A stretch of 64,000 bases of DNA from a virus (taxonomy: Duplodnaviria; Caudoviricetes), in the IMG/VR virus record IMGVR_UViG_2593339134_000001; one strand, given 5' to 3'. The number at the start of each line of letters is the position of its first letter. The first letter of the stretch is position 1. Below the pieces are notes generated by a model. That model had not been told where the DNA came from and did not search any database. It saw only the letters and a list, made by a program, of their open reading frames with translations. Both the position numbers and the translations under genes were made by a program. Below, piece after piece: positions 18,591-61,137 of this stretch.

Positions 18591-18608
18591 TTCAATTTGA
18601 TTACGCAC

Positions 18609-18634: not shown

Positions 18635-18811
18635 ATGCGCGATGGTTTGGGCGGTAGCACAAACCGGGTGGATTGCAATGGTGAATATTTACATTGAATC
18701 CGGTCGATAATTGGGTGGATTGGCTTTTCATTTTACTTGAATGGCATTTGACACGGGCATTTTGTTGGCTAACTTGTGGTTAGGCATAGACTTCGCGTGA
18801 ATTTCATAGCT

Positions 18812-20197: not shown

Positions 20198-20466
20198 GTG
20201 TCTGCTCCTTGTTTTTGACGCATATTCTTGGAAACAGGGTATTACATGCCATCGTCCGCCCCATGTGGATAACTGGTGTTATGGCAAACCCAGCACTGGG
20301 TGCTGGACATCCTACACCCGTTCAACAATCCCAACAACTGTCGTCCATCGTATGGCGCACCCAAAACACAACCACCGTCACGAATCCAGGGCCGAAGCCC
20401 CGTTCCTGACCTCCAGGACAGGCGAGATCGCCGACACTGGAACCTCCACTGCCCGGATGAAGCCAT

Positions 20467-20865: not shown

Positions 20866-21037
20866 GGCGAGCCTTCCTATGTTCGATGTGTCTTTGAATC
20901 CTAGTCGATACAGCGGACTGGTCAAGCCATAGGGACCACTTCCAGGAATAGTCACCAGCCCAACCGCGCCCTGGCGACTATTTGGACGAATAATCACCAG
21001 CCAGTGGTAGGTTCCCGCCGCATGATGCGCCGGCCCC

Positions 21038-24000: not shown

Positions 24001-24264
24001 CACGGCAAATATTGGAGCAAGCCCCGCGAAATGGCGGCCAGGGCGTTCCAAGCGTGGTGCGAAGACCGGTTGGCGGGGCAAGGGCGGCGCAACGATTACT
24101 TGTCTTCGATGGCCGACAACCGCTACTACCGTCTATTGGATCAAAAACCCTTCCCCGAAGGCGAGGAACGCGACCGTATCAACATGGCGCTGGATGGCTT
24201 GGTGGTGGCGCTGCGGAAGGCCGGGACGCTGGCGAAGGCGTTTGGGCTGCTGAAAGCCGCCTAG
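21085..24264 (+). CDS. Large polyvalent protein with HExxH motif and C-terminal LPD1-like domain
   Basis: 'GSLGHELFHAID'; 'YWS.P.EM.ARAF..W....L......NDYL...PFP.GEER..IN'. Confidence 0.8.
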   Translation: MLYLLFTPADLLKAEQLGLFDMPTQVRAHTRKDGAVVAPHIRLQKKRLHPQGGQHDLFGHAEPRTEAHKLGRLGQFVHKHGGYRRLLSILAGLPEPQRDKLHESMAEVARKPVAMVREFLALGAKHEAPAKGGTALTGEEVAGEVSPHDAPSRGEVGPSEGDTKEENGHRYVLRDSRWHRINEESTDENTGPTQGDEEQGASAGAGGTADEVSGVPSEGGAGAEPESTEPAHDPVAHAEAKQDLADELLTNPDSERAAELARKVADGFKAGQLEKLRTKIEEMGGKAKVAEAIKHEIGKSGGLDAGGVKSRAVALVDGLATSLNLSRDEVLAELGLKEVRRKARATPQKPKNTLETGGDFSDDDPNSPNYRFRDTGYIGGSRKELAAQMIRQAGREGRQLRATDIDWQEIEQNPREAKELITKSNLFGAVDWDALKAGGMEPGAGFLVDRVYASLAPEPPEDSAQARRDYAVGLESLRTRLEACKTPDEVTDALNTLRDEYEGAILNAQEAADYQKAQGIYRGIADRRWALSKERDALVQAMINPGHEASALGYKQQRRLDKGWKADPALEGQIRQLKAAAEQARADLEEWDARHPEVAKGRTDSPMAQAVGQAYGVMRSIVEKAKARNQEENPVHRAWKLMGPRFLGILNYRRREGSDAFREHLAAAKIGKIEDWSWAEKERKTVDAPKATKGQVRFQLQVAETFERKGGQPVKVASTAALKAMFGLRDVQSGNWVLSDPAAAAFHVQKSAEALSDLADLLDVEPGQIAMNGRVALAFGARGRGAAGGMAARAHYEPVHRTINLTKLGGGGSLGHELFHAIDNLIGEVETGQASSKDVYASEDPALLPEGELRDAMIAFRRAMLDGPHRLGEKIRYTDKDVKTARYNIDRSITRGVAGIIKAAGDIHAAVRAVDAHFAGRTDKMSEKNRKDWRKMAAAYYDAKPAGGEALVESGPTLSAFAFEASKLDSDDHGKYWSKPREMAARAFQAWCEDRLAGQGRRNDYLSSMADNRYYRLLDQKPFPEGEERDRINMALDGLVVALRKAGTLAKAFGLLKAA

Positions 24265-47302: not shown

Positions 47303-48219
47303 GATGTGTAAACGTGGTTGATGGCGGTGCCGGTGCGGTCGTCGTCGATGCCCGAGAACACGAGGCCGGCCAGGGTTCCGGCGACGGTATAGACCGGGGC
47401 GTCGAACTCGCCTTCCAGGTATTCCACGGCGGCGGGGTTCCATGCCGCGCCCTGTAGCCCGGCGGTCTCGAAGACCGGCACATTGCCGGCCATCAGCGCC
47501 CGCAAGGCCCGGTGCAAGGTCACGCGCTCATCCGGGTTGAGGCTCCATGCCCCCACCTCGATGGTGACGTTCGCCAGCCAGCCGGTGCGTTCGGTGAATT
47601 CGTCCTCGCCGGACGCCACGTACCACACGGCGCCCATATCCAGGCCGACGGCGTGTTCGGCGGGCGTCTCCGACCGGAGTTGTACCGTCACGACCGGCCA
47701 GCGCGTGTGCGCGGCCTGCGGGGGGCCGGTCAATACGTCGATGCGGGTGGATTGCAGCGTGCCGGCCTGCGGCAGGAGTTCCCCACGGGCCACGTAGACG
47801 GCCAGCCCCTCGTCCAACCGGTCGCGGACCAGGAGGACGGGATTCAGGGTTGCATCGCGGAAGGTGGCACGGGGCGTGGCAACGGTGGTTTCGGCGTCCA
47901 GGGTCCACAAGACGCCGTTCCAGTAGTAGGCCCGGTAGTAATAGGTGACGCCGTTCAGCAGGGCTTGGTAGTCCAGCGCGGCCCGCTCGTCGCCGTCGTA
48001 GACGACCGAGGCGGCGGGGTCCACGGGCAGCGGGTCGCCGACATAGAAGGCGTTCGGGGCATAGGTGTTGGACGCGCCCCAATCGCCGGTTTCGGGCGGG
48101 GCCAGCCAGTCGTCGGTGGTCTTGCGGAGGACGATCCAGCGCCACGCGCCCACCGGGGGCGCGATGTATAGGCGGATGGCGTTGCCTATGGCGAGGGGTT
48201 CGGCGCGGGTGATGCTCAT
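47299..48219 (-). CDS. Tail terminator/completion-like protein with N-terminal FN3-like segment
   Basis: ATG 48219 just after the late promoter; 'L.NG.TYYY.AY', 'WP.VTVQL'. Confidence 0.65.
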   Translation of the reverse strand: MSITRAEPLAIGNAIRLYIAPPVGAWRWIVLRKTTDDWLAPPETGDWGASNTYAPNAFYVGDPLPVDPAASVVYDGDERAALDYQALLNGVTYYYRAYYWNGVLWTLDAETTVATPRATFRDATLNPVLLVRDRLDEGLAVYVARGELLPQAGTLQSTRIDVLTGPPQAAHTRWPVVTVQLRSETPAEHAVGLDMGAVWYVASGEDEFTERTGWLANVTIEVGAWSLNPDERVTLHRALRALMAGNVPVFETAGLQGAAWNPAAVEYLEGEFDAPVYTVAGTLAGLVFSGIDDDRTGTAINHVYTS

Positions 48220-48227
48220 GGGCGGGT

Positions 48228-48244
48228 AGGATGGCGTCACGACC
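48228..48244 (-). promoter_or_regulatory. Putative late promoter 6
   Basis: GGTCGTGAC-gc-CATCCT; motif starts 25 nt before ATG 48219. Confidence 0.8.
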
Positions 48245-48289
48245 CGACGCTGGGTTTGCGGGCATTGACGCCGCGCCGGTTCGGATATG

Positions 48290-48317
48290 AAAAAGCCCGG
48301 TCTAGCCGGGCTTTTTT
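48290..48317. terminator. Intrinsic terminator
   Basis: AAAAAGCCCGG-TCTAG-CCGGGCTTTTTT after the mnt-like gene. Confidence 0.85.
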
Positions 48318-48624
48318 ATTCGCGGTCATCAATGACCAGTGGCGTTCCGGGCTTAAGCTTGGATAGATCAACTGGATTCTTCCGTATCTCTTCCTCAAGG
48401 CGCTTGAAGTCTGCCCTCAGTTTTTCAGCAAGCATGGAGGCCAGGCGCTCCTCCTGATCCTTTGCGTATTCTTTCAACTCGCTCGCGGCGGGGGCATACG
48501 AAGCCTCAAGCCGAGCAACGATCTCGGCGTTCATGCTGCGCCGGTTTTGGTAGGCGGACTCCTCAATTCTTGCCTTCAAGTCTTCGGGCAAGCGGATTTT
48601 CATTTGGGGTGCTTCTCTACTCAT
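48316..48624 (-). CDS. Arc/Mnt-family repressor (paralog of 16874-17185)
   Basis: 'PQMKIRLP.DLK.RIE.SA..NRRSMNAEIVARLE.S'; shares 'FKRLEEEIRKNPVDLSKL'. Confidence 0.88.
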   Translation of the reverse strand: MSREAPQMKIRLPEDLKARIEESAYQNRRSMNAEIVARLEASYAPAASELKEYAKDQEERLASMLAEKLRADFKRLEEEIRKNPVDLSKLKPGTPLVIDDRE

Positions 48625-48713
48625 GCCCGAATAATACACCACGATGGTTCTTGCATGAATGAACCGTCGTGGTTTACGATAAACCACTCTGGTTCACTAT
48701 AAAGGAGCGAATC

Positions 48714-48890
48714 ATGACCACCGCAAAGTCGGCACCGTCAATGTCAGTGCGATTACCAAACGACCTAAAGGAATGGATTGCAGCGGAAGCTGGCCGGAAC
48801 TACCGATCTCTGAATGCGGAGATCGTGGTCCGACTAAAGCAGTGCATGGACGCCGAAAAGAGAAAAGCCCCAAGTGTTGCAACCACTTGA
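48714..48890 (+). CDS. Arc-family repressor (paralog of 16564-16770)
   Basis: AAGGAG RBS; 'VRLP.DLKEWI..EA.RNYRSLNAEIV.RLKQCMDA'. Confidence 0.88.
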   Translation: MTTAKSAPSMSVRLPNDLKEWIAAEAGRNYRSLNAEIVVRLKQCMDAEKRKAPSVATT

Positions 48891-48937
48891 GGCTTCGATG
48901 TGATGAACACTACCACTTCAAAAGTAGGTAACACCCT

Positions 48938-49720
48938 ATGAATCCTACCACAGCCTTCCAATTCCAAGAATCCCGCGAACTCCGCGTCATCATCGTTGAC
49001 GGTGAACCCTGGTTCGTCGCCAACGACGTTTGTGCTGTGCTGGAGCATGGCAACCCACGCCAAGTTATCAGCCGCCTGGATGACGATGAAAAGGGGGTCC
49101 ACAATGTGGACACCCCTGGCGGCCCCCAGGAAATGACCCTCATCAACGAATCCGGCCTCTACTCCCTGATCCTCACCAGCCGCAAGCCCGAGGCCAAGAA
49201 GTTCAAGAAGTGGGTGACTGCGGAAGTCCTCCCGGCCATCCGCAAGACCGGGCGCTATGTCCACCCCGAAGCGGCCCAGCCCGCCCCCGCGCCCCTGGGC
49301 GAGATCGCGCAATGGGTGGTGGGCGAATACACCCGCAGCCTGGGGCGCTACCTCAACCGCTCCAACCAGCAGATCAGCCCCCGCATCCACACCCACCTCC
49401 GGGCCAAGTTCGGCGTCGGCAACGTCCGCGACATCCCCGCCGACCGCCTCGACGAATTGCTGAACCTGCTGGAAGCCTTCCACGGACAGGCCTACCGCCT
49501 GTGGTGGACCTGCCTCAACCTGGAATTGGCCCTGCTGCAAACCCTGCACGTCCCGGTCCACGAGACACGGCGGGAGCTGCCCGCCGCCATCCTGCAAGCC
49601 ATGGCCGCCGTGGCCGAACCCAAGCTGGGCGAAGGCAGCGCCGCGCTCGCCATCCGCGACAAGGCCTTCCACCAACTGGCGGCGCGCATCCCGCGCCAGG
49701 AATCCCTCCCGCTCCACTGA
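48938..49720 (+). CDS. BRO-N antirepressor-like protein
   Basis: BRO-N motifs; C-terminal ~200 aa identical to those of 39074-39874. Confidence 0.92.
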   Translation: MNPTTAFQFQESRELRVIIVDGEPWFVANDVCAVLEHGNPRQVISRLDDDEKGVHNVDTPGGPQEMTLINESGLYSLILTSRKPEAKKFKKWVTAEVLPAIRKTGRYVHPEAAQPAPAPLGEIAQWVVGEYTRSLGRYLNRSNQQISPRIHTHLRAKFGVGNVRDIPADRLDELLNLLEAFHGQAYRLWWTCLNLELALLQTLHVPVHETRRELPAAILQAMAAVAEPKLGEGSAALAIRDKAFHQLAARIPRQESLPLH

Positions 49721-49748
49721 GGAACCCCCGCCGCAAGGACGCGGCCCC
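49110..49748 (+). repeat. 639-bp inverted repeat, right copy
   Basis: Partner of 39046-39684; a shorter diverged third copy lies at 14260-~14710 plus 12615-12645. Confidence 0.95.
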
Positions 49749-49766
49749 TTGCCCAGGCCGCCCACA

Positions 49767-50492
49767 TCAGAGTCCCGCCCCCGGCTTGGGCCCGCCAGAA
49801 TCGCTGCTTCCAATCTGGACACCCTCGTGCTTGTGGTGGCGAAGGCCGATCTCGGCTCCACCATCAACGCCCCCGAGGACGACATCCCCATCCACCACCA
49901 GCGTCTTCGTGATATGCACATCGGCGGCGATGGTCAGGGCGTTGGATAGCGTCATCGTGGCCGTGCCGTCCGGATTCACCACAAGGTCGAAGGCGGGCGT
50001 CTGGATGCGGAAGTAGGTCGGCGTGCCGGAGGCCGGGACATGCCAATTCTTGTCGAAACCCTGGCCCTGGAACTCCCGGAACTCGGTGGACGCGCCCACC
50101 AGCACCTTGATCCCCGCCGGGTGTTGCCACTGGTAGTTCCCGGCGGCATCCACGGCGCTGAACACGCCCGAGGCGTGGCGCTGGATGCGCAGGTTCTTTT
50201 CCTTGAACGCCATCTGCGAAACCGGCGGGAACCGGAAGCCCAGGCAATGGGGCATCCCGTGTTGGTCGGTGGCGATGAGCGCCACCCGCTCCCGCTGGCC
50301 GAGCGGGGCCGTGGCCGGGTCTTGGCCGTGGCCCAAGACCGGGGCGGGCAGATCGATGGTGCCGCCGTCGGACGCGGCGTCCAGGCTGTAGACCGGCACC
50401 CCGACCAGGCGGCGGCCATCGCGCAGCGACACGCAGTCGATGGACGGGCCTTCGGGGTGGACGGCGATGACGCGGGCGTGTTCGAGCTTCAT
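49767..50492 (-). CDS. Baseplate central spike (gpV/gp45-like)
   Basis: N-terminal OB-like region, 'H.SG' beta repeats, C-terminal 'L..H.H.GV..G' metal-binding apex. Confidence 0.8.
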   Translation of the reverse strand: MKLEHARVIAVHPEGPSIDCVSLRDGRRLVGVPVYSLDAASDGGTIDLPAPVLGHGQDPATAPLGQRERVALIATDQHGMPHCLGFRFPPVSQMAFKEKNLRIQRHASGVFSAVDAAGNYQWQHPAGIKVLVGASTEFREFQGQGFDKNWHVPASGTPTYFRIQTPAFDLVVNPDGTATMTLSNALTIAADVHITKTLVVDGDVVLGGVDGGAEIGLRHHKHEGVQIGSSDSGGPKPGAGL

Positions 50493-51889
50493 GCGGCGGC
50501 GCGGACGAACAGGAGGGGAATCGACTTTATCATCTTGGGCCTCCCGGAATGGTCGAGCACCTTATCCTTGAATTCGGCAAAAGGCATCGTGGTCACGGGG
50601 CCGAGGAAGCGCGGATCGTCGTAGTGGCCCAGATAGGCGGCGACGGCGCTTTCCTTGTCGGGAAAGCCGATCATGCACTTATCCTCGTCCCAGTCCTTCC
50701 AATTCCCGGCCTTGCGCTGGTGGACGATATAGACGCTCTCGGCGTCCTCGTCCGGGCCGACGTAGACATCGACAGGGTCGCCGTCCGGGGCCACGCCGAG
50801 GCTTCCCCGGATATATCCATAATCGTGTTTCATCTTGATCGACCACGCGTGGCCGTCCGGGTCCGTGCCGGAGCGGGTGGAACCGGCGGGATTCTCGATG
50901 CTGATGTCTAGACCACGGAAGCGGCGATGCCCTTTTTTGTAATTCCCGGCCTGGATTTGGGCTGCGGTGGGTTGGGCCTTGTGCAGGCTCATGTATTCCA
51001 AAATGGCCTTTGGCATGGGTTCGCCGTTGGCGTCCACGCCGCCTGAAAGCTTTGGCACATGCTTTAGGTTAACCCCATTGAATACGGACAAAAGGCGATG
51101 TATAGTTACGGTAGACCCGGAATGAGAGGGATGTACGACTTCGGCTGGATTAGCTGAAGTATCGAGTCCCGGTCCTACCGGGTCTTCCACCTTGCTTTTC
51201 AGCACAGCCACATCATAAAGCTTCAATCTAGCCATTTCTGGCGGTCCAGCTAACGATTCCCGCACCGTCAGCTTCACAGCATAAAGGTTCCCATTAACCT
51301 TTAATGGTGCCACGAAAGTATGGAATGCCTCCGTATCAGATACCCGTCTAGCATCTGGCGGATTCTTATCCAGCCAAACGGCGCGACGAACCAAGTGAGC
51401 CAATTTTTCCACCACTTGGGCATCCATTGGCGCTTTGATCCCAGAAAAAGATTCTCCCTTGCCCTCCGCAGTAAATCGGATTTTCCGATTCATGTCCAAG
51501 TTTAGAATCTCGTGGCCCTGCAAACGTTCGGCATATACGCGCCGGGCCATATTTTGCAATATCTTTAAATCGCCCTGCCACCCAGGTATAGACAAAGAAG
51601 TAATATAAGCTGATTTTACCGGAATTTCCCAATCCCCGAACCAAACCTTGAACTCGGGCGTCCGAACGAGATTCCACTGCGACTCATTCAAATTCGACGG
51701 CTTGCCATTCGGGGCCAACCGCGCGTGGGGCGGCGGATGACCGAAACCGCCCCTATCGTTGCGCTCGTGCGACGACCAATAGCCGCCATTATTGCGGTAA
51801 TACCCGCGCACATGGGTTTTGAGGAATAAAACGGGTATCACCATCGATTTCCGCAGGGGTAGGGATCGGTCGGGGAAAGGCATCTTCAT
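50489..51889 (-). CDS. Polyvalent protein: LPD3-like domain plus inorganic pyrophosphatase-like (InPase) domain
   Basis: 'LAPNGKPSNL...QW..VRTP.FK.WFGDWE'; 'F.APL..NG..Y.VKLTVRE'; 'PT.AQ..AGNYKKGH...GL.ISIENP.GS.R.G', 'YGYI', 'DGD.VDVY.G', 'DEDK.M.GF'. Confidence 0.85.
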   Translation of the reverse strand: MKMPFPDRSLPLRKSMVIPVLFLKTHVRGYYRNNGGYWSSHERNDRGGFGHPPPHARLAPNGKPSNLNESQWNLVRTPEFKVWFGDWEIPVKSAYITSLSIPGWQGDLKILQNMARRVYAERLQGHEILNLDMNRKIRFTAEGKGESFSGIKAPMDAQVVEKLAHLVRRAVWLDKNPPDARRVSDTEAFHTFVAPLKVNGNLYAVKLTVRESLAGPPEMARLKLYDVAVLKSKVEDPVGPGLDTSANPAEVVHPSHSGSTVTIHRLLSVFNGVNLKHVPKLSGGVDANGEPMPKAILEYMSLHKAQPTAAQIQAGNYKKGHRRFRGLDISIENPAGSTRSGTDPDGHAWSIKMKHDYGYIRGSLGVAPDGDPVDVYVGPDEDAESVYIVHQRKAGNWKDWDEDKCMIGFPDKESAVAAYLGHYDDPRFLGPVTTMPFAEFKDKVLDHSGRPKMIKSIPLLFVRAAA

Positions 51890-51901
51890 GGCCTGGATTC
51901 C

Positions 51902-53053
51902 TTATTTCCGTTTCAACAGGTTATCGAGATAGGCCGCGAACTGTGGATCGTCGTTGGGCTTGGCGTCCGGCAACTTGAGCCAAGTGCCGCGGCAATGGGG
52001 GTGCATGACGCCAGAAGCAAGCCACCAAAGCTCGTCCGGTTCTCGCGCTATCAGCACACCACCCACCCGCTTGCGGGGCGAGGCCGAGCGCCCGATGTTG
52101 GTTTTTCCGGCCCATATCATGGTCTCGCCGTCCAGCGGAACGGTATCGGGCGATACCACCTTCATGATCCGACCATCCACGCGGCGGCAGGCGCTACAAG
52201 CCCCCCGGTACATCTCCACCCGTTTGAGCCGGGCACTGGGCGGGAATCCCGCAACCATGCCCTGGTTCTGCATCTCCGCCGTTTCGGTCACGGCGATCCG
52301 CCGCCAATCGCGGTTCCACCGCCCGAATTGGTCCAGCAGTTCTCCCCGCAGGTCGTCCGCCTTGTTGCCCAGGCTGACCGCCTCCTGGTGCCCGACCAGC
52401 GTTTTGCGGATGGCGCTCCGCATGTTGTTGGTCAACTGGACGATGTTTTCCGCCGCCCTGGCCCGGCCATAGTCCAGCACGGCCCGCTGGACCTTCGTGG
52501 CTTCCAACTGTCGGGCCTGCCGCACCGCGTCGGCATCGAGGAGACGTTGCGCTTGCCGTTCGGTGATGTTCGCCATATTGGCCTGGACCCGCCCCATGAG
52601 CGTGGCCCGCGTCGCCAGCCAGTCGGCCTCGGCCACGAGTTGATCGTGCGGGAGGTAGCGCTGAAAGAGGTAATCCACCACCAGCATCCAGTCATCTAGG
52701 GCGAAGCGCTGGGGTGGGAGGGTTTCGAGGTAAAGCTTGGCGATGGATAGTTCGGCCCGGCTCCAGCGCCCCATCAGGCCGGGCCGTTCGACCGGGGCGC
52801 GGGTACCAGGCCGGTGCGGCTCGAACTTGAGCCAGCGGTCGAGTTCGGCCTGTAGCCCGGCGATTTGCATCAGGCCGCGCCGGGTGAAGCGCTCGATGAG
52901 ATCGCGCAGGAACGGCGAGTGGTGCGGCTCCCAGATGTCGCCGCCGGGCGGTTCATCGGAGATAGCCTTGTAGATGTGTTCAAGCGCCGCGTCGGTTTGC
53001 GCGGGCGTGAGTGTGGAAATGTCGAGAAGCGTGGCGGTGTCGGGGTCGATCAT
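51902..53053 (-). CDS. MuF/gp7-like minor head protein
   Basis: 'RDW.RIA.TE', 'AC..C', 'HPHCRG'. Confidence 0.8.
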   Translation of the reverse strand: MIDPDTATLLDISTLTPAQTDAALEHIYKAISDEPPGGDIWEPHHSPFLRDLIERFTRRGLMQIAGLQAELDRWLKFEPHRPGTRAPVERPGLMGRWSRAELSIAKLYLETLPPQRFALDDWMLVVDYLFQRYLPHDQLVAEADWLATRATLMGRVQANMANITERQAQRLLDADAVRQARQLEATKVQRAVLDYGRARAAENIVQLTNNMRSAIRKTLVGHQEAVSLGNKADDLRGELLDQFGRWNRDWRRIAVTETAEMQNQGMVAGFPPSARLKRVEMYRGACSACRRVDGRIMKVVSPDTVPLDGETMIWAGKTNIGRSASPRKRVGGVLIAREPDELWWLASGVMHPHCRGTWLKLPDAKPNDDPQFAAYLDNLLKRK

Positions 53054-53059
53054 GGCCCA

Positions 53060-53076
53060 AGGGTACGGTCACGACC
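53060..53076 (-). promoter_or_regulatory. Putative late promoter 7 (leaderless)
   Basis: GGTCGTGAC-cg-TACCCT-N6-ATG 53053. Confidence 0.8.
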
Positions 53077-53091
53077 TAAGCACCAGGATTT

Positions 53092-53289
53092 CTAATCGCG
53101 CTCTGCGTCGATTTTTTCCATCATCTTCCTAACTTCCGGTCCATCGATAATATACCCCCAGCTAATCGGTTTTTCCTTCCCGGCATCCGCATAGGGAATC
53201 CAACCTTTCCCGCCACCCACATAAACCTCAGTGGGGTTGCTACGGGATGGACCACGGAATAATGCACCTTCGTTTTCTATGAAAACCAT
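53092..53289 (-). CDS. Small protein coupled to the RelA/SpoT-like gene (candidate immunity protein)
   Basis: ATG 53289 overlaps the upstream 3' end; same lower-GC composition as the RelA/SpoT domain. Confidence 0.6.
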   Translation of the reverse strand: MVFIENEGALFRGPSRSNPTEVYVGGGKGWIPYADAGKEKPISWGYIIDGPEVRKMMEKIDAERD

Positions 53290-54671
53290 TTTCGTTTGCC
53301 TTTTTTCAGAATACACAACAACATTATAGACTTTTGAAGGTTTTGCTTCAAACCTTTCGCCCTATCCCAGGCTTCCGCATATAGCCTCTTTGATTCGCTT
53401 TGAGCATGTCTATACCTAGACTTATCCTCTTCATGCCAATGATCTTCTAGCCCAGTATCCGTCCCATACTTGGCGTGAATATCGCGAATCACATTATAAT
53501 GTTCATGTCCTGCGCTTTTCGCCGCCAATATATGTGACAGATGCAGCTGGATTTCCGCCAACATATCCGAACCTGGAACTTTTACGATCAACAGGGCGTC
53601 CCGATAACCTTCCGGCGTTGGATGCTGGAATCTATCCTTCGGGGCTTTGGCTAATTGGATGCCTGAGGCTTTCAAGCCTTCCACAACCTTATGAAGTTCT
53701 TCCACCGTGTCACATTTGATTGAAGCCCTAAGAACATCGCGGAGTTTTTTCCACTTCCCGGCGTAATCGGCTCGGACCTTTTGCCTAGCCCGCTCCTTAC
53801 CCTTTAATGGAGCAACCACTATCGCTGGCCCTTTAGCGCCCAATGCCTCCTCGACGCTTCCAGAAACTTTGCCCCCTATAATTTCCGCCACGTTTGCCAA
53901 TGCCTTTTTGAATTTTGGAAGAGCTTTTTCTGCCGAGGCATACAACTCGTTTTCGGTGTTATGTGGTTGGAATGCGTCTTCCGGTAAATCACTCACATCC
54001 CCGAACAGCGACTTATCTCTGCCCCCATTACCGGGATCAGCGGGGGGCTTCGATCCGCCACCACCACCATTCCCGGCCTTAAACCCTTTAACATCGTGCC
54101 ACTCGACCTTGTGAATGCCTCCGCGCTCGTCGTGGACCGTGGCGCCCTGTTCACCCACCGAATGCACCCGCCCCGACATGCCGCCATCGCCAAAATGCAG
54201 GGTATCGCCGGGCTCGATGTTGTGCGTGCCGTAGCCGAGTTTGGACCCGCGAGGCGGCTCAAGCTTTTTCTGCCGCTTGTCGTCGTACTCGTGGACATAG
54301 GTGCCATCGCCACGGATATAGCCCTTGACGTGGGATTTCAGGAACAGGATCGGGATAGCCTTCATCATCGCCTTTCCCCCATTGTCGCCGCCCTCTTTCT
54401 CGGCATGCCGCACGAACACCCGCCGCCCGCGCTTATCCTCGGCCAGGAAACCATCCTCACCCCGGTCCACCACCTTGAGGGCGTGTTCGGCCCGTTTGCG
54501 GTGGCCCTGGACATCCTCCCACGGCACCCGGCGCTTGCCCTTGGCGTGGTGGACTACACAGCCAGCGGTCCCGGCGGACAACACCTTGCCGGGCATGACG
54601 CCATGTTCGGGGTGGCGGAAGTAGAGTTCGTCGCCGGGGAGGGCTGTGGGGGTGGATTGCGCTGTCTTCAT
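53277..54671 (-). CDS. Two SH3/Tudor-like repeats plus C-terminal RelA/SpoT-like nucleotidyltransferase domain
   Basis: 'LK...RA..K', 'D..RA.I', 'GYRD', 'EIQ', 'H..Y' synthetase-like motifs; no HD hydrolase domain. Confidence 0.8.
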   Translation of the reverse strand: MKTAQSTPTALPGDELYFRHPEHGVMPGKVLSAGTAGCVVHHAKGKRRVPWEDVQGHRKRAEHALKVVDRGEDGFLAEDKRGRRVFVRHAEKEGGDNGGKAMMKAIPILFLKSHVKGYIRGDGTYVHEYDDKRQKKLEPPRGSKLGYGTHNIEPGDTLHFGDGGMSGRVHSVGEQGATVHDERGGIHKVEWHDVKGFKAGNGGGGGSKPPADPGNGGRDKSLFGDVSDLPEDAFQPHNTENELYASAEKALPKFKKALANVAEIIGGKVSGSVEEALGAKGPAIVVAPLKGKERARQKVRADYAGKWKKLRDVLRASIKCDTVEELHKVVEGLKASGIQLAKAPKDRFQHPTPEGYRDALLIVKVPGSDMLAEIQLHLSHILAAKSAGHEHYNVIRDIHAKYGTDTGLEDHWHEEDKSRYRHAQSESKRLYAEAWDRAKGLKQNLQKSIMLLCILKKGKRKWFS

Positions 54672-56491
54672 ACTTCGATCCGATAAACCGTCATGCCAAA
54701 ACTCTTGCCCATGGGTTCGCCCGACGGTTGTTGGGCACCACCCTTTTTGCCAGCAAATCCGGGCTTTCCGGCGGAATTCCCACCCGGTTGCCCCCCTCCC
54801 TCATCCTCCCCTTGATCGCCCGCCACGGGCCGCCTGGGCGGCTGTTTGCCACCGTCCGCACCACCGTCCGCGCCCTCGTCCGGCTCGCCCTCCCCATCCT
54901 CATCGAACCCTTCCCCGAAGTCCTGGGAGTCCTGCTGCTGCCGGGCCTGCTGCATCTGCACATACAGCCCCATCAAATTGGGATTCACCGGGGCCGCGCC
55001 CATCGTCGGGTCGGGGTGCTTATCCTGACCGTCCTGGGCCCGCATCTCGTCCACGGTCAGGTAGAGCTTCTGCCGCTCCTGCTTGGCCTGCCGATCCTCC
55101 TCGTCCAGGCCGGTCCAGCGGAACACATACTTCTCATCGAAGGTCGGCAGGATGAAATCGGAAAAGGTGTCCTCGTAGAACCGCAGGAGCGGGATCAGCC
55201 CTTTGTCCCGGCTGTTGGCCAGTTTTTCCCCGGTATCGTTGCCGTTGCCGATACCACCATTGCGGGAGCTGAACGACTCGAAGTTGATTTCGTCCGGCGA
55301 CATGCCGAAGATCGCGCACGAGATGGCCGTGAGGAAGGTCATCCATTTCGAGAAGTACATCTCGTTGAAATCGGCATTCAGCGGCGTATAGGTCGCGCCG
55401 GATTCCTTATCCTTGGCGGCCAGCACTGGCAGGGTCCATTTCTGGTTGATCCCCTTGACCATGGCGTTCCAATAGGTTTTGAACGCCAGCATGTCCTGCT
55501 TATCGAAATCCCCGTAGATTTGCAGCAATCCCTTCGGAATCGCGTTGTCCGTGAACCCGGTGATATTGAGGTTCATCGCGTTCAAGAACCCCGTCACCAC
55601 CCGGATCAACAAATCCACCTCCGACAGGCCGTAGCCACCCGAGGCCACGTTCGATACCGGGTTCCGGCACTGGTAGATCAAATCATCATGGGTGTAGGCG
55701 CAGCGGATGCGGGATTGGATGACTTGGAGGGCGAAGATTTCGTCGTGGCCTTGGTAGCCCGCCTCCGTGCAGAGCCGGATCGTGGCCCCGTCGATGGCAT
55801 AGAACCCATCCATCCCCAGGCGGGCATCGCGCTTCATTTCGGTTTCGATGGGCGCGGAATCCAGGGTCAGGCTATCCCGGACGCTCACCGCCATGAAGTC
55901 GCCCAGCGACGTGCGGCCCATGCGCTGGCGGGCGCGGGGATCGAATTCCCAGCCACAATTCGCCATGAACCGGGATAGGAGTCCGATGCCCTGCTTTTCG
56001 GGGCCGGTGAGCTTGTGGTCCTTGTCGCGGTGGCGGATGGCGAAACCCGGCCCCTCCCCGCTGTCGTTCTGGCGGGCGAAGCGGCGGACGTGGTTCAACC
56101 GGGTTTGGATGATGAGGCTGATCGGGGGCTGGGCAGCCATGGCCCGCAGGGTGTCGAAGCCGAGTTGCGAGGGCCGGTCGTAATACTCGCCCTGGATGCC
56201 GATTTGCCAGTCGTCGAGGCGGACGGACTTCATCCGCACGCCCTGGGCGTTCTCGCTCGGGAACGGCACGCGGACGGGGGCGGCGGCTTTCAGCAATTCT
56301 TGCCGGACCGCCTGTTCGCGCAGGTAATCCACCAGGATTTGCATGCTGTCGGGGCTGGAAAGCCCTTTGGCGAGGTCGCCGGCGGTGGGCGCGTAGGTTC
56401 GATGGAGTTCGCCGAGGGCGTCACGTCGCTCGCCGGGCGGGGCGCGGTCGTCGAAGGCTACGGATTGGGGGGGGTCGGGTGGGCGCGTCAT
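54668..56491 (-). CDS. Portal protein
   Basis: 'II.TR', 'RDSL..D', 'DGATIR', 'YGLSE', 'F.....P.G.L', 'M.F.KW..FL....CA.FG..P.EI'; acidic tail. Confidence 0.9.
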   Translation of the reverse strand: MTRPPDPPQSVAFDDRAPPGERRDALGELHRTYAPTAGDLAKGLSSPDSMQILVDYLREQAVRQELLKAAAPVRVPFPSENAQGVRMKSVRLDDWQIGIQGEYYDRPSQLGFDTLRAMAAQPPISLIIQTRLNHVRRFARQNDSGEGPGFAIRHRDKDHKLTGPEKQGIGLLSRFMANCGWEFDPRARQRMGRTSLGDFMAVSVRDSLTLDSAPIETEMKRDARLGMDGFYAIDGATIRLCTEAGYQGHDEIFALQVIQSRIRCAYTHDDLIYQCRNPVSNVASGGYGLSEVDLLIRVVTGFLNAMNLNITGFTDNAIPKGLLQIYGDFDKQDMLAFKTYWNAMVKGINQKWTLPVLAAKDKESGATYTPLNADFNEMYFSKWMTFLTAISCAIFGMSPDEINFESFSSRNGGIGNGNDTGEKLANSRDKGLIPLLRFYEDTFSDFILPTFDEKYVFRWTGLDEEDRQAKQERQKLYLTVDEMRAQDGQDKHPDPTMGAAPVNPNLMGLYVQMQQARQQQDSQDFGEGFDEDGEGEPDEGADGGADGGKQPPRRPVAGDQGEDEGGGQPGGNSAGKPGFAGKKGGAQQPSGEPMGKSFGMTVYRIEV

Positions 56492-56497
56492 GCGCCC

Positions 56498-56514
56498 AGT
56501 GTCATGTCACGACC
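56498..56514 (-). promoter_or_regulatory. Putative late promoter 8 (leaderless)
   Basis: GGTCGTGAC-at-GACACT-N6-ATG 56491. Confidence 0.8.
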
Positions 56515-56837
56515 TGGCGGGCGGGGCCGCGTCCTTGCGGTGGGAATCCCTCAGTGGAACAACCGCTCCTGGACATCGGCTCTCGGATGCTTCTACGGTC
56601 TACCGGGGGTCGTCGCGCATCCGTGCGCTCCTTCTCGGATAAAAATAAACAAAAGGGCGCGGAATGCGCCCTGGGTTTTGTCCCTGGGTTATGGCACGGC
56701 CAAGCCCTTGAATTATCTGGCTTGCCCGGTTGTGCCAAAATTCCTGAGTTTTGACATGAATCATTTTTTATGTAACGTCTAGTTAGACTGGGGTCGAACT
56801 ATTAATTCAAATTGCACTTCTATACAATTTACTACGA

Positions 56838-57647
56838 TTAGTTATCGGTATTATGTTCTTCATTGAAGATGGCTTTTTTATTTTTGTTATCTAAATCTGA
56901 GATCGTTTTTTGATTGTGCAAATAACGTTTTAAAAGCTTAATAAAAAAGTCATCGCCAAACATTCGGTCAAATTCTGTGAAATTCGCCATTCGATTGAGG
57001 ATAAATTTTGCTTCCGCTTCGGATGTTGATTTATATAACCTTGCTAGGTCTTTGCGGATTTGAAACTTAACTTCAAAATTAATTTTGTTTGTATAAGATG
57101 AAAGCGTATAGTCGAAATCATGGTCTCTATATGATAATGAATTAGCTTCATTGTCAATCGGCACTATGATAGCATCTACCCAGTCACTACCATCCAATAA
57201 AATACTATAAGGGTCATTTGTCTTCAATTGATGGCTTTGCGTTAAAGATAAAGGTTCTGATAATAAAGGTCTAGCTGCAATTTTAATAAATTCTCCAATA
57301 TAATTATTTTTTATATTAAACTCGCTAAACTTATTTGAATTCGTCCTTGAACACATGGCAGATAGCCCAAAAAAATATAAGTCAACTTGGCTGATTTTTG
57401 GATTTGGAAGAAAAAAGCTTTGAACTATTTCAACACGCATCCCATAAGATTTATAGCATTTATTATCAAAACCACATACTGCATTATCAATACTTGTGTA
57501 CCCAACAACCTTTCCAATGAAAATATACTCTTCTGGATCAACTTCTTTATGACTTCTGAGTTCGCCTATTTTACATCCATACGCAAGGCAAGGGAGCATT
57601 GCCATTATGGATAATAAAGTTATTATTAACTTAACCATATTTATCAA
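56838..57647 (-). CDS. AT-rich exported hypothetical protein (moron)
   Basis: Signal-peptide-like N-terminus; very low GC; exact start uncertain (ATG 57641). Confidence 0.7.
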   Translation of the reverse strand: MINMVKLIITLLSIMAMLPCLAYGCKIGELRSHKEVDPEEYIFIGKVVGYTSIDNAVCGFDNKCYKSYGMRVEIVQSFFLPNPKISQVDLYFFGLSAMCSRTNSNKFSEFNIKNNYIGEFIKIAARPLLSEPLSLTQSHQLKTNDPYSILLDGSDWVDAIIVPIDNEANSLSYRDHDFDYTLSSYTNKINFEVKFQIRKDLARLYKSTSEAEAKFILNRMANFTEFDRMFGDDFFIKLLKRYLHNQKTISDLDNKNKKAIFNEEHNTDN

Positions 57648-57810
57648 AGTATCTTATCATCCCAAATAGCATGGTTTTAAGCCAGCGTCTAACACCGCCC
57701 CTGCGGATAACGGGCGTTATGTCCAAAAGCGGCGCAGGCTGCCCAATAATCCCACACCCGCCCAACGGTCAAGCTCCGGCCAAACCGCCTAGCCCCGAAC
57801 CAGCCCAGCG

Positions 57811-58041
57811 TCATCCCGCATACCGTATTGCCTCCTCCCGATCCAACCCCAACCGCTCGGCAATCCGTCCATGGTCGTACCCGATGCGGCGCAGGCTCCG
57901 CACCTGGGCGGCGATCTGGACGTGGACGGGAGTTTCGGGCGCGGGGTCCACGGGAATCCCCGTAGCCCCCTTGGAGATTGGTTTGGGCCGGGCCAAGCCG
58001 GATTCGGACGGGGGACGGTGTCTTGGGCGGTTATGGCTCAT
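57811..58041 (-). CDS. Small HTH-like protein
   Basis: AAGGAG RBS; 'VR.LRR.GY....IAERLGL' C-terminus. Confidence 0.55.
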   Translation of the reverse strand: MSHNRPRHRPPSESGLARPKPISKGATGIPVDPAPETPVHVQIAAQVRSLRRIGYDHGRIAERLGLDREEAIRYAG

Positions 58042-58059
58042 GCTTGCTCCTTCGGTGCA

Positions 58060-60141
58060 TTATTCATCTCTCACAAAAAACCCACATCCCCGGTCCCGCG
58101 CCCGGACCTGGAATCCCCGCCAGCCACAGGCCGCGCTTTCCCGCGCCTTGTCGCCATAGTGCCCGCAGCGCCCGCAGAGATCGCCCGCCGGAAGGTCCAG
58201 TTGGCTCAACATGGCCTGGACGGTCGGTGGCAGGGTATTCGACATCGCGTCCATGGCCTCCCGGACTTGGCCCTTCGGTTGCTCGCCCATCGGTTCCGCC
58301 TCCGGCAGGATGAACATGCCGGTCCCGTGGCTCCTGGCCCAGGCCACGTCGCAGAGCATGTTGGCGTAGCTGAAATGGGGGTCGATGCCGACCTTCTTGA
58401 CTACCCGCCGGTACTTGTTCGTTTCCCCGTCCTTCTCGGCCACCAAGGCGGTCTTGGTGAAGTGGTGGAACGCCCGCGGCAATACCGCCACGGTCTGGCG
58501 GACGCCCTTCTCGACCACCTCTTGGACCAGCCCTTGCGGGTCCGGGAACAGGCATAGCGGGGTCTTGGCCGTCAACCGCGCCATGGAAACCTGCATGCAC
58601 TTGTACTGGTCCATCCGCAGGGTATAGCGGTCGCGCTCCGATTCGTCCGTACGCCGGTCGGACGAATCCAGGCCGGCCGCGTCGCCCCAGGCGATCATCC
58701 CTTCCGCGATCTGCCCGAACGAATCGCAGATGAACACCCGGCGCGGCCAGCGGTTGGCGAAGCGCTTGGCGTCGTTGTAGTTGGGGTTGATCTCGACCAC
58801 CGCCACGGCTACGCCGTAGGCCTCCATCAACTCGTCGCAGCGCCCGAACGGGTCGGCGGAGTAGATTTCCTCGACATGGACCACCGCTTGGCGACCATCG
58901 GGCATCCGCTCCTTGACGACCACCACATTGAAGTTGCCCATTTGGTCGATACCCATGAAGGTATCCCGCGCCCGCGTCTTCCAGACCACCCCGGCGGCGC
59001 GGCCCGCTGCGACACACCGCTCCAGGTGTTCCAGCGTGACCGGTACTTGGGTCGGGTCCAGGTAGGGCTTCCCCAGTTTGCGGTTGAAGAAATTCTTCAG
59101 GTCCGTCGCCGTGTTGTAGGCGAACATGATGTCGCCCGGCGAAATCGTGGGGCTCAGGAATTGCGGGAAATGGATGGAGCGGATTCGGAGCGGCCTATCC
59201 GCTTTCGGCACCGACAAATCGACCGTCGGATCGGCCAGGGGATTTTCCGCGATCCACTCGCCACGTTGGCTGTCCGCGATGACCGTCCCGCAGGCTGGGT
59301 TGCCGCACACGTAGCGCCATGCGTCCAAGGCTTCCACCCACCGGATGCAGGCCGGGAAATAGTCGTCCAGCGGTCGCGCCGCGCCGCAATGCGGACATGC
59401 GGTATGGAACCGGTATTGCGCCCCCCGCTTGTACCAATGGTGGATATCGGCATCCGGCCAGTTCGCCGTGGAGCCCATCAGCACGAAGCGCACATCGGAG
59501 GCGGACAGGCGCTCCAGGGTCTTCTCCATTTGCTCCAAGGTCATTTCCTGCACCTCGTCGAAGGCCAGGACATCCATGGGGATGGATTCCGTGGTGGCCT
59601 TGCCCGAGGTCCACGAGAACACGAACATGGCCTCGCCGATGCGGCGGGTGTAGACGTTGCCTTCGCCGGTTTTGCGCCCGGAGCCGTCCGGGGCGTCCAT
59701 CGTCATCAGCTTGTGGATGCCGGGGGCCGAGCGTACCAGGGGCATGAACCGCTCGGACGACTTCAAGCCGGCCAGTTTCATGTCGGGAAGGAACAGGCCC
59801 ACCGTGGCCGGGCCGAAACGCAGTCCGAGGTAGATCGTCGCCAGCATCTCCATGACCGTGAACCCGACCTGGGCGCACTTCATCAGGACCAGGACCAGCC
59901 GGTAGGCCTCGTCTTCGGTGCTGGGTATCTGGTCGTAAATCCAGGCCATCGCCGGGCGGTCGTCCAGGCGGAAGGGATGGCCGTCCACTTTCAAGCCTTG
60001 GGCGGCGAGGCTTTCGCACCATTGGCGGAAGGTTGTGCCTTCGGGGATGGGCTTGGCGAGGTCCGCGCCCTCGATCCTCGCCCGCCTGCGCCGCCTCAGC
60101 TCCAATTCGGCCTGGGCGCGGACGGAAAGGGGAATCCTCAT
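58060..60141 (-). CDS. terL: Terminase large subunit (lambda GpA-like)
   Basis: 'KCAQVGFT' Walker A variant, 'FDEV', 'GST', 'CPHCG...YVC..C', 'FFN..LG.PY', 'MGID'. Confidence 0.88.
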   Translation of the reverse strand: MRIPLSVRAQAELELRRRRRARIEGADLAKPIPEGTTFRQWCESLAAQGLKVDGHPFRLDDRPAMAWIYDQIPSTEDEAYRLVLVLMKCAQVGFTVMEMLATIYLGLRFGPATVGLFLPDMKLAGLKSSERFMPLVRSAPGIHKLMTMDAPDGSGRKTGEGNVYTRRIGEAMFVFSWTSGKATTESIPMDVLAFDEVQEMTLEQMEKTLERLSASDVRFVLMGSTANWPDADIHHWYKRGAQYRFHTACPHCGAARPLDDYFPACIRWVEALDAWRYVCGNPACGTVIADSQRGEWIAENPLADPTVDLSVPKADRPLRIRSIHFPQFLSPTISPGDIMFAYNTATDLKNFFNRKLGKPYLDPTQVPVTLEHLERCVAAGRAAGVVWKTRARDTFMGIDQMGNFNVVVVKERMPDGRQAVVHVEEIYSADPFGRCDELMEAYGVAVAVVEINPNYNDAKRFANRWPRRVFICDSFGQIAEGMIAWGDAAGLDSSDRRTDESERDRYTLRMDQYKCMQVSMARLTAKTPLCLFPDPQGLVQEVVEKGVRQTVAVLPRAFHHFTKTALVAEKDGETNKYRRVVKKVGIDPHFSYANMLCDVAWARSHGTGMFILPEAEPMGEQPKGQVREAMDAMSNTLPPTVQAMLSQLDLPAGDLCGRCGHYGDKARESAACGWRGFQVRARDRGCGFFVRDE

Positions 60142-60629
60142 GCCGGGGCTTTGCCCTTCGCCAGGGCCGCGAGTTGTTCGTCGGTCATCGCGCCCAGGTC
60201 CATCGGGGCATCCAAGCCGCGAATCCGGCGGATATTCTCAATCGCGGTCTTACTGGCTTCGGCGGCGGCTTTATAGGTTTTGAATCCCTTGGCCTTCGGC
60301 AAATCCTCCTCGATCTTTTCCAAGATCAAGCGATTCACCCGGACACCCCGTTCCATATCCTCCACATCGGCCTGGACTTCGCGATCCACTTCGCACGCGA
60401 CCCTTTGCGAAGTTTCTTGCGAAGCCTCCTGCGAACCAGCGGCAAGCTGCGCATTAACCCGTTCCCGCTTGAGCGAGGCCGGATTCCTCACCCATCCATG
60501 TTTTTTAGCCCGCTGACGGATAGCGGCTTCGGTAATATCAAAGTCCCCGGCAATCGCCCGCAGCGGGCGCACCCCCGCCCTAAACTGAACCTCCACCGAA
60601 TCCCAGTCAACGTCCTTGGCCACGATCAA
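60138..60629 (-). CDS. terS: Terminase small subunit
   Basis: 'DW......RAG..PLR.IA....ITE.AIR.RAKK.GW.R'; 'MTDEQL'; directly upstream of terL. Confidence 0.8.
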   Translation of the reverse strand: MIVAKDVDWDSVEVQFRAGVRPLRAIAGDFDITEAAIRQRAKKHGWVRNPASLKRERVNAQLAAGSQEASQETSQRVACEVDREVQADVEDMERGVRVNRLILEKIEEDLPKAKGFKTYKAAAEASKTAIENIRRIRGLDAPMDLGAMTDEQLAALAKGKAPA

Positions 60630-61137
60630 CCCTTACCCCCGCCGCCCCCACAAACTCCCTCAACTCATCATTCCAAGCCCCATACCGCCGCACCACCGAG
60701 GTGAATTCTTCGACGCTATGGCCGGTAAGCTTCCAGATGGGCCGCCCGGTCTCGTCGTCATACCGGGGCTCCCCGTCGCCATCGGTCGCATGGACGCAAT
60801 GGCTCAACTCGTGGAATATCAGGATTTCCCTGTGCCGGTCATCCGCCGCCGTCCAATATTCCCCGTCCAGGACGACGAGGAAGTCCGGCATCGCGCCGAA
60901 CATGCGCTCCACCATCCAGAGGAACACCCGATTCAATTTGCCCTGGACGCGGGGCAAGTGGACCGCGCCAAGGATGCGCCGGTCGGACTCGAACAGGGGA
61001 TCGGTCCGCAGCAGGAAAGCCATGTGCGGCTCGCCGTCCTTCAAGTGGACATGCTCGGGGTATTCCAGGCAGCGGCGATACCAATTCGCGGGATGATCCG
61101 GGCCGGGTTCGGGGATGATGAAGGGGGAATCCATCAT
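60607..61137 (-). CDS. Putative phage metallopeptidase
   Basis: 'PDF.V.LD..YW', 'IFHELSH', 'H.VEEF..VVRRYG'. Confidence 0.85.
   Translation of the reverse strand: MMDSPFIIPEPGPDHPANWYRRCLEYPEHVHLKDGEPHMAFLLRTDPLFESDRRILGAVHLPRVQGKLNRVFLWMVERMFGAMPDFLVVLDGEYWTAADDRHREILIFHELSHCVHATDGDGEPRYDDETGRPIWKLTGHSVEEFTSVVRRYGAWNDELREFVGAAGVRVDRGQGR

Follow-up and report, generated by a model that had tools for sequence, protein, structure and literature searches.

A portal-adjacent Tudor-like carrier with exchangeable RelA/SpoT-homologue and Zeta payloads and a linked small partner gene: a probable polymorphic effector system of myovirus-type phage heads

We analysed a stretch of 64,000 nucleotides (nt) from a virus of the Caudoviricetes (IMG/VR record IMGVR_UViG_2593339134_000001), hereafter the window, and studied in it a gene at 53277-54671 on the minus strand (the target gene). 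Its product of 464 amino acids (aa) joins an N-terminal carrier to a C-terminal RelA/SpoT-homologue (RSH) synthetase domain. The gene directly follows the portal gene and overlaps a 65-aa open reading frame (ORF) at its 3' end. We found that the same carrier bears an unrelated C-terminal domain in related proteins, that the RSH domain and the small gene are replaced as one cassette in an orthologous prophage of the same genus, and that the small gene accompanies the RSH payload and almost never the alternative one. On this evidence, the target gene probably encodes a head-associated polymorphic effector with a cognate neutralising partner, resembling the MuF-Apk2/IapK/Aph1 system, on a carrier other than MuF.

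Organisation of the locus

The minus strand of the window carries the head and packaging block of a myovirus-type prophage, in which the target gene lies among the following genes:

58060-60141, minus strand: large terminase (phrog_675, E 2.9e-75)
54668-56491, minus strand: portal gene, whose TGA stop overlaps the ATG of the target gene (PF04860, E 9.6e-12; phrog_12, E 3.5e-29)
53277-54671, minus strand: target gene, 464 aa, carrier and RSH effector
53092-53289, minus strand: 65-aa partner gene, putative immunity (four homologues, confident structural model, linkage to RSH, one natural fusion)
51902-53053, minus strand: MuF-like head-morphogenesis gene, separate from the carrier (phrog_2468, E 4.7e-4)
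50489-51889, minus strand: LPD3 and InPase protein, 466 aa (PF18798, E 4e-23; PF18823, E 1e-48)

The portal ORF ends in '...gta tga' and the target gene starts at the 'atg' of 'gtATGAag', giving a 4-nt ATGA overlap. The ATG of the small ORF, at 53289, lies 13 nt within the 3' end of the target gene. The guanine plus cytosine content at third codon positions (GC3) reaches 0.80-0.85 in the portal, MuF-like and terminase genes and 0.76 in the carrier; the RSH half (0.47) and the small ORF (0.50) lie lower. The original prediction, made by a model from the letters alone, had described a gene translationally coupled to the portal, with a GC-rich 5' half, a lower-GC 3' half and an overlapping 65-aa ORF of similar composition; the ATGA overlap, the GC3 values, and the ATG position together with the start shared by the homologues of the small ORF bear out each of these points.

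Neither the target protein nor the small ORF matched a PHROGs family, and neither the small ORF nor its homologue at locus L001 matched a Pfam family. Orthologues of the MuF-like gene gave sub-threshold matches to PF06152 and PF04233.

Payload polymorphism and head context

A homologue search with the target protein returned 23 non-self proteins. The carrier and the RSH domain occur together in seven of them (P0002-3, P0005-9), and one homologue of the RSH set additionally contains ART-PolyVal. In 13 of the 23, Pfam Zeta_toxin/AAA_33 stands in place of RSH, which is the exchange of C-termini among homologues that the original prediction had raised. P0004 matches the target in the carrier alone, at 74% identity, and diverges directly after the common 'GGGGGKKPP' linker; the identity of P0004 and of the protein from the same-genus genome G025 (74-76%) is likewise restricted to the carrier. 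Polymorphic toxin systems were reportedly defined by Zhang et al. in 2012. As in such systems, one conserved N-terminal part, the carrier, is joined here to unrelated alternative C-termini (RSH or Zeta). As a side observation, P0021 and P0023, both from ENA assemblies, join an RSH domain to tetratricopeptide repeats in proteins of 577-672 aa, and the composition of P0021 is lysine/glutamate-rich and eukaryote-looking.

A scan of viral contigs, with a five-sequence alignment as query for the RSH domain, gave 17 loci with this domain and 110 carrier-Zeta loci, 80 of which were kept. One further locus, L001, was the sole good one of four from a profile search of genome contigs. The order portal, carrier-effector, MuF-like protein, InPase recurs in both viral-contig sets and in Bordetella phage vB_BbrM_PHB04 (two records), a lytic-type 94-kb myovirus. 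No other cultured phage represented in the GenBank phage set carries the gene. Judged by titles and abstracts, the papers naming PHB04 include none about this gene. Its relevant products are as follows:

gp035: portal
gp034: carrier-RSH protein, annotated hypothetical
gp033: 69-aa homologue of the small ORF
gp032: HD_4 hydrolase
gp031: metallophosphatase
gp030: MuF-like protein
gp028: InPase
gp027: giant 'DNA methyltransferase'

The RSH domain is also attached to head proteins directly. At four loci (L013-L016) it forms the C-terminus of an 898-904-aa Phage_portal_3 protein (E 4.9e-88; ORF L013:3919-6633), and at L019 it is carried by a MuF-like protein. Elsewhere in the family it occurs in proteins with InPase, Acb1, eCIS_core, Phage_Mu_F, Helicase_C or ART-PolyVal. 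Given these head-protein contexts, the target protein would therefore sit inside the head and leave it with the DNA. A head-resident, DNA-accompanying role was argued for RelA/SpoT, InPase and MuF fusions by Iyer et al. 2017, in the available text of that paper (PMC5512222).

Natural exchange of payload and partner

The carrier was found in 2 of 64 family genomes, namely the window's own genome and G025. We compared the window from 48000 to 60200 with the orthologous prophage of G025 by blastn. The two are 95% identical over the terminase, 89.5% over 54055-56753 (portal and carrier), 92% over 51625-53076 (MuF-like gene) and 89% over 49724-51028. No blastn match in G025 was obtained for 53077-54054, which holds the RSH domain and the small ORF. 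The corresponding slot of G025 contains a Zeta-kinase domain and a different small ORF (L108:5955-6212), which shares with the small ORFs of viral Zeta effectors a short 'RE.P..FDY.D.R' stretch only (E 1e-4). The swapped stretch is a compositional island, with a GC3 of 0.47-0.50 against about 0.8 around it. Thus payload and partner have been exchanged as one cassette, whose joints are the Gly-rich linker and the spacer before the MuF-like gene.

A separate observation concerns the LPD3 and InPase gene. Amid sequence that is 89-92% identical, G025 offers no match to the middle part of this gene (51029-51624, GC3 0.53), which is therefore a second swapped module in the same operon.

Carrier architecture and the junction motif

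The AlphaFold2 model of the target protein, built on a 69-sequence alignment, has a mean predicted local distance difference test (pLDDT) score of 84.3. Together with alignments, it divides the protein as follows:

54492-54653, minus strand: Tudor/SH3-like barrel 1, residues 7-60 (modelled strands within residues 15-59, pLDDT >90)
54258-54362, minus strand: junction motif MMKAIPILFLKSHVKGYIRGDGTYVHEYDDKRQKK, residues 104-138 (motif profile, E 2e-16)
54072-54224, minus strand: Tudor/SH3-like barrel 2, residues 150-200 (internal repeat; strands within residues 157-198)
54000-54071, minus strand: Gly-rich linker, residues 201-224, left break-point of the swapped cassette (alignment; blastn)
53352-53999, minus strand: RSH synthetase domain, Tas1/Apk-like, residues 225-440 (profile, fold)
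53280-53351, minus strand: C-terminal tail with half-motif LQKSIMLLCILKK, residues 441-464 (alignment; pLDDT 46-70)

Both barrels are modelled as five-stranded with pLDDT >90; beyond barrel 1, three more beta strands extend to about residue 92 (54396). Residues 12-56 and 154-199 are 42% identical over 48 positions (E 5e-9, as a single comparison). In VIA-align, barrel 1 matched the Tudor domains of PHF1, PHF19, PHF20 and TDRD3 with Z 7.4-8.2 and a root-mean-square deviation (rmsd) of 1.5-2.2 A over about 50 residues. No usable feature match to the carrier came from the ESM Atlas, whose structure hits had template modelling (TM) scores of at most 0.35. The linker between the barrels (residues 93-147), which contains the junction motif, is of low confidence in the model.

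Two SH3/Tudor-like repeats separated by a sequence motif, on a carrier distinct from MuF, had been proposed for this gene. The repeats are recovered by the internal alignment and as modelled barrels, and the motif MMKAIPILFLKS lies between them at residues 104-115 and was also found in other proteins. We considered the target as a member of the MuF toxin family, which is marked by an N-terminal MuF domain (PF04233/PF06152; MuF3/MuF4 of Jamet 2017), and rejected this assignment on Pfam and the modelled fold: Pfam gave no match to PF04233 or PF06152 in the target at E ≤ 0.1, the N-terminus is modelled as an all-beta Tudor-like barrel, and the MuF-like protein is encoded by a separate gene (51902-53053).

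A hidden Markov model of the junction motif gave 75 domain matches, 26 N-terminal and 49 internal. The motif stands at the N-termini or junctions of effectors, InPase proteins and small alarmone hydrolase (SAH) proteins. In the LPD3 and InPase protein of the window it occupies the N-terminus (residues 15-42, motif E 8e-9), and this protein ends in the half-motif KMIKSIPLLFVRAAA.

The 65-aa partner

The small ORF has four database homologues (56-69% identity) and ten more in the fetched loci; its homologues begin at the same MVFIENEG. Its model reaches a pLDDT of 92.6, with five strands and a C-terminal helix. From its conservation and model, the ORF is judged to encode a real protein, predicted to fold with confidence. 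Foldseek with this model found nothing at E ≤ 1e-3, and a wide VIA search gave a best Z of 3.8, to generic SH3/Sm/chromo-like barrels.

To survey the linkage of this family to the two payloads, we assembled 103 sources (L001-L101, L105 and the window). Eleven (L002-4, L012, L021, L077, L079, L081, L086, L094, L099) were left out because they had no complete effector ORF matching at E ≤ 1e-5, mostly owing to cuts at the locus end; the remaining 92 loci comprise 18 of RSH type and 74 of Zeta type. A member of the small-ORF family was found within 1.5 kb downstream in 15/18 RSH loci and in 1/74 Zeta loci. After effectors at least 95% identical were collapsed into 66 clusters, the family accompanied 11/13 RSH clusters and 1/53 Zeta clusters (Fisher p 8e-10, which is overstated since related phages are not independent). 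In the reverse direction, with the small ORF as query, RSH was adjacent in 21 of 23 viral loci, Zeta in one, and one locus was cut by the edge. The Zeta-adjacent locus lies on the same contig as L022, where an orphan copy of the small ORF follows a Zeta effector.

The RSH clusters without a separate small ORF are L019/L020, the MuF-fused form, and L017. At L017 (L017:1492-2847) the C-terminal ~55 residues of a 451-aa RSH protein belong to the small-ORF family, forming an in-frame natural fusion (hhalign probability 94%, E 9.5e-8 over 54 columns). At L013-16 and L018 the small gene is still adjacent, on the opposite strand (convergent). Downstream of carrier-Zeta effectors we found other, acidic ORFs of 55-62 aa, in 13/53 clusters vs 0/13 RSH clusters (p 0.056; loci L022-L101). 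Thus the small gene directly downstream changes with the toxin domain, as in polymorphic toxin systems. The small coupled gene, originally proposed as the partner of the RSH domain, behaves as a cognate one in the linkage in both directions, in the swap and in the L017 fusion.

The RSH synthetase domain

The RSH domain, about 215 residues after the Gly-rich linker, is modelled with pLDDT >95. RelA_SpoT Pfam matches were found in 24/51 family members at E ≤ 1e-3 (best E 5.2e-8). A profile of 56 domain sequences, compared with the sequences of solved structures, matched Tas1 (6ox6, E 4e-16) and the exported synthetase SaSAS (8vx3, 1.2e-3) and nothing else at E ≤ 0.01, neither CapRel nor FaRel2; a phmmer search also had Tas1 as its top match (E 7e-4). 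The Foldseek matches of the model were RelP, RelQ, Tas1 and CapRel (E 1e-7 to 1e-5; 9.5e-8 for RelP, RelQ and Tas1) and, with the range extended to 1e-4, Rel. In VIA-align, small alarmone synthetases gave Z 13.8-15.1 over 164-180 residues, CapRel gave Z 11.1-11.8, and Tas1 stood out by its rmsd, the smallest at 2.6 A over 164 residues, and by its identity, which was highest at 23%. Profile and model comparisons thus confirmed the RelA/SpoT-type synthetase fold (polymerase-beta-like nucleotidyltransferase) that had been predicted for the C-terminal domain, and its closest characterised relative by these comparisons is the Apk enzyme Tas1. The domain is widespread: it was found in 2125 representative clusters at E ≤ 1e-3 and in 103 at E ≤ 1e-30, many of them with proteins of 1000-3000 aa.

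Ten residues (K290, K298, D312, R315, Y356, D358, E373, Q375, H389 and Y392) are invariant in the 51 family members. They align with the motifs of Tas1 and RelP and include the syn2 Asp and the syn4 Glu of EIQ. Because these motif residues are invariant across the family, the domain looks enzymatically active. The available text of PMC12226406 gives the Apk-type residues as R-x-T in syn2, G-x-N in syn3 and Y-H in syn4. Here R-A-S in syn2 resembles R-x-T and L-H in syn4 resembles Y-H, and D-A-L in syn3 is neither the Apk G-x-N nor the S-x-H of the (p)ppGpp pattern. Since the Apk signature is only partly present, the product could differ from (p)ppApp. In the same paper, as far as its available text goes, Paulet 2025 describes the Apk residue motifs as insufficient to set specificity. 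We put the chance that the product is (p)ppApp, ahead of (p)ppGpp and of tRNA modification, at about even. The original prediction had left an alarmone-making and a tRNA-modifying effector side by side; the sequence proximity to Tas1 tentatively favours the alarmone ((p)ppApp-type) branch over the tRNA branch.

An alarmone hydrolase in sibling loci

An HD_4 SAH gene lies behind the small gene in 7/13 RSH clusters. We considered it as an RSH-specific immunity enzyme and ruled this out, as an HD_4 hydrolase also follows 8/53 Zeta effectors. Its presence behind some Zeta effectors hints that the Zeta-like kinase may phosphorylate a nucleotide in a way that an HD enzyme can undo. By analogy with Apk2 (IapK plus Aph1) and Bxa (Bsi plus BAH), immunity may be double in these clusters, with the small protein acting by binding and the HD_4 protein enzymatically.

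In the phage HD_4 proteins, the junction motif (ILFFKGHV.GYTR.DG..V.PH) stands at the very start. Those bearing it are encoded at L006:6959, L007:3171, L010:1933, L011:1423, L027:6781 and L105:7688, the last being PHB04 gp032. The window's genome has a chromosomal SAH (G000:C8:103860-104354), 45% identical to the phage one, which lies in a non-phage context and is without the motif. If the junction motif is a head-loading or processing tag, the HD_4 hydrolase would also be cargo.

Proposed mechanism and alternative explanations

In the explanation that we favour, the target protein would be made late, in step with the portal. Its two-barrel Tudor/SH3-like carrier would hold it in the head-assembly pathway and load the payload into the head. 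The payload, a C-terminal Tas1/Apk-like pyrophosphokinase, would reach the next host together with the DNA. In that cell the RSH domain would most likely move pyrophosphate from ATP to the 3'-OH of ADP or ATP, yielding (p)ppApp and draining the ATP of the recipient cell as with Tas1 and Apk2. The 65-aa protein would bind the RSH domain and block its activity in the producing cell and perhaps also in lysogens; Tis1 and IapK bind and block their toxins, according to the available text of PMC12226406. The original prediction of a virion-delivered effector with an immunity gene stands in its RelA/SpoT fold, its non-MuF carrier and the cognate behaviour of its partner, and virion delivery and immunity remain the proposed part.

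Several observations weigh against this explanation. The target itself scores below the cutoff of Pfam RelA_SpoT (PF04607, E 4.3e-4, 21 bits against a 27-bit cutoff), which is a matter of model sensitivity and not of fold; the PHB04 orthologue clears the cutoff with 30.6 bits. The syn3 residues depart from the Apk signature. The window is without an HD_4 hydrolase gene, hydrolases of this kind also follow Zeta effectors, and a cargo-type junction motif is odd for a pure immunity enzyme. A profile of the small ORF found nothing better than E 0.9 among solved chains, and Tis1 (6ox6_B) ranked tenth against the small protein in VIA with a Z of 2.7, at noise level. Finally, the L017 fusion and the tight linkage fit an accessory or regulatory subunit equally well.

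A broader reading, possible though doubtful as a whole, is that the tandem Tudor-like carrier and the junction tag (ILFLKSHV.GY.R.DG..V..H) form an undescribed general cargo-loading system of PHB04-like myoviruses. Any tagged enzyme (RSH toxin, Zeta kinase, alarmone hydrolase, InPase, LPD3) would then be loaded beside the portal and ejected with the DNA, and the DNA encoding the tag might also serve as a recombination joint at which cargo modules are shuffled. The 65-aa protein would then inhibit the RSH domain through a new fold class, without relation to Tis1 and IapK, and could also act in cis (L017). The passages on cleavage, processing and packaging in Iyer 2017 (PMC5512222) make no mention of the junction motif.

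It is unlikely that the RSH effector is packaged as proposed but requires the 65-aa protein as an accessory or regulatory subunit (an activator, a substrate-recognition factor or a loading adaptor). Strict two-way co-occurrence and the L017 fusion would suit such a subunit as well, and no homology to Tis1 was detected in the small protein. However, the small gene occupies the immunity position, directly downstream and overlapping; it swaps along with the toxin domain in G025, persists as an orphan beside the Zeta effector at L022, and is transcribed convergently at L013-16 and L018. Moreover, the small protein is without the junction motif borne by the other putative cargo, and the small ORFs that Zeta effectors have of their own (13/53 vs 0/13) follow the toxin-immunity pattern.

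We regard as very unlikely a non-toxic signalling role, in which an injected (p)ppGpp synthetase would put the host into a stringent-like state favouring takeover, with the small protein and the SAH tuning the level. Such a role was predicted for the RelA/SpoT domains of polyvalent proteins by Iyer et al. 2017, in the available text (PMC5512222). The neighbouring genes encode nucleotide-metabolism cargo (InPase, LPD3), the SAH proteins have a cargo-like motif, and syn3 is off the Apk signature, all of which would agree with it. However, the nearest characterised relative, Tas1, is bactericidal, and the cassette alternates with a Zeta-toxin kinase domain. Each payload also has a dedicated small partner gene, and therefore appears to cause self-harm that needs neutralisation.

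The least likely alternative is an unpackaged prophage module of the toxic small alarmone synthetase (toxSAS) type (toxin-antitoxin or abortive infection, FaRel/CapRel-like) that lies in the head operon by chance and targets the CCA ends of tRNA: CapRel is among the fold matches of the RSH domain, a small neutraliser-like gene adjoins it and the fused L017 form recalls CapRel, but translational coupling to the portal, a Tudor-like carrier common to unrelated payloads, direct portal-RSH and MuF-RSH fusions, synteny kept in a lytic-type 94-kb myovirus, and a sequence far closer to Tas1 than to tRNA-acting RSH enzymes (with no CapRel or FaRel2 at E ≤ 0.01) all argue against it.

Other features of the window

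The remaining features of the head block and its surroundings are as follows:

56838-57647, minus strand: insert ORF of 269 aa, 31.6% GC, between the terminase and portal genes (ORF call, GC)
53323-53351, minus strand: sigma-70-like site TTGAAG-17-TATAAT, 34 nt upstream of the small ORF ATG (a lead only)
45000-46991: tail sheath gene, further along the block

The insert ORF has no Pfam or PHROG match. The G025 prophage has other low-GC ORFs at the terminase-portal slot, and blastn found no match there over 56754-57782. The sigma-70-like site was rejected as a promoter of the small ORF, as one site was found against a chance expectation of 1.1 +/- 1.0; were it real, it would suit independent expression of the small ORF, and we list it as a lead only.

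Between the InPase side and the tail-sheath side, the minus-strand structural operon is split by the region 48316-49720, which contains an anti-repressor gene, Ant (plus strand, phrog_130, E 1e-55), and two Arc/CopG-like ribbon-helix-helix ORFs. A transposase-like ORF (60607-61137, minus strand, phrog_513, E 3e-36) lies just past the large terminase gene. On the plus strand, a 1059-aa protein (21085-24264, phrog_29900, E 1e-89) has a variant of the junction motif at residues 24-40, and a 1555-aa protein (25830-30497, phrog_62, E 4e-158) is of the DarB-like helicase/methyltransferase type. Both are further polyvalent-type proteins of the same element, comparable to PHB04 gp027. Upstream of the 1059-aa gene lies a low-GC stretch (17000-21000, 34-47% vs about 65% around it).

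Comparison with known systems

The MuF-(p)ppApp synthetase toxins, Apk2, were reportedly described by Bartoli in 2023, and phage-packaged (p)ppApp synthetases with immunity have so far been known only on MuF (Apk2). In the available text of two papers (PMC12226406; Jamet 2017, PMC5576092), Apk2 is encoded in the head module beside the portal, with an N-terminal head part, a C-terminal RSH toxin and a small binding-type immunity gene directly downstream (putative here), followed by an HD small alarmone hydrolase, as in the sibling loci of our gene. Unlike Apk2, the carrier here is tandem Tudor/SH3-like and is followed by a separate MuF-like gene, the window is without the hydrolase gene, and the alternate payload is a Zeta-kinase domain.

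Among solved structures, the RSH domain is closest in sequence to Tas1/Apk1-Tis1, a type VI effector of Pseudomonas aeruginosa (6ox6), which also has a small partner, Tis1, of 76 residues in the structure. Its delivery, however, is by PAAR and the type VI secretion system instead of a phage head, and its syn3 motif differs. In the polyvalent proteins of PMC5512222, as its available text describes them, RelA/SpoT, InPase, LPD3, ART-PolyVal and Acb1 likewise occur in proteins predicted to be packaged and injected. Polyvalent proteins combine 2-15 disparate domains, whereas the target has one enzymatic domain, a dedicated carrier and a small gene. One variable C-terminus with a putative immunity gene is the logic of polymorphic toxins, not that of many fused activities.

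The toxSAS systems (FaRel, FaRel2, PhRel, CapRel) share with the locus a toxic small alarmone synthetase with an adjacent or fused neutraliser, and an SAH as a possible antitoxin; unlike it, they are stand-alone two-gene defence modules without a head carrier, and several act on tRNA. The Bxa-Bsi-BAH prophage polymorphic toxin has a double immunity (Bsi and BAH), but its payload is an ADP-ribosyltransferase, its host is Bacteroides and its N-terminal domain is another one (PMC11699363, available text). The accessible part of a survey of exported Apk1-like synthetases (PMC12691689) names Sec, XopAD, MuF, DUF4157 and Rhs/PAAR as delivery domains, and its figure legends show a type VII secretion-associated enzyme; neither a Tudor-like carrier next to the portal nor a fusion to the portal is named there. 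A literature search of titles and abstracts found no paper describing this carrier or the small protein.

A phage-head polymorphic alarmone-synthetase toxin with immunity is thus already established, and what is new is the carrier, the partner family and the very clear cassette swap. The congeneric prophages provide a clean natural 'swap experiment', RSH plus partner vs Zeta plus partner. The toxin-neutraliser pair, if it is one, is compact and testable, and PHB04 (gp034/gp033/gp032) offers a cultured phage in which a role in packaging or infection can be addressed. The junction motif is a candidate head-loading tag common to several cargo enzymes. With 2125 representative clusters, which fall for the most part in phage proteins without annotation, the RSH family would widen the range of alarmone-based weapons in phage-host and phage-phage conflict. 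Compared with Apk2, the locus keeps the payload logic but changes the carrier, and other phages place the domain on the portal itself.

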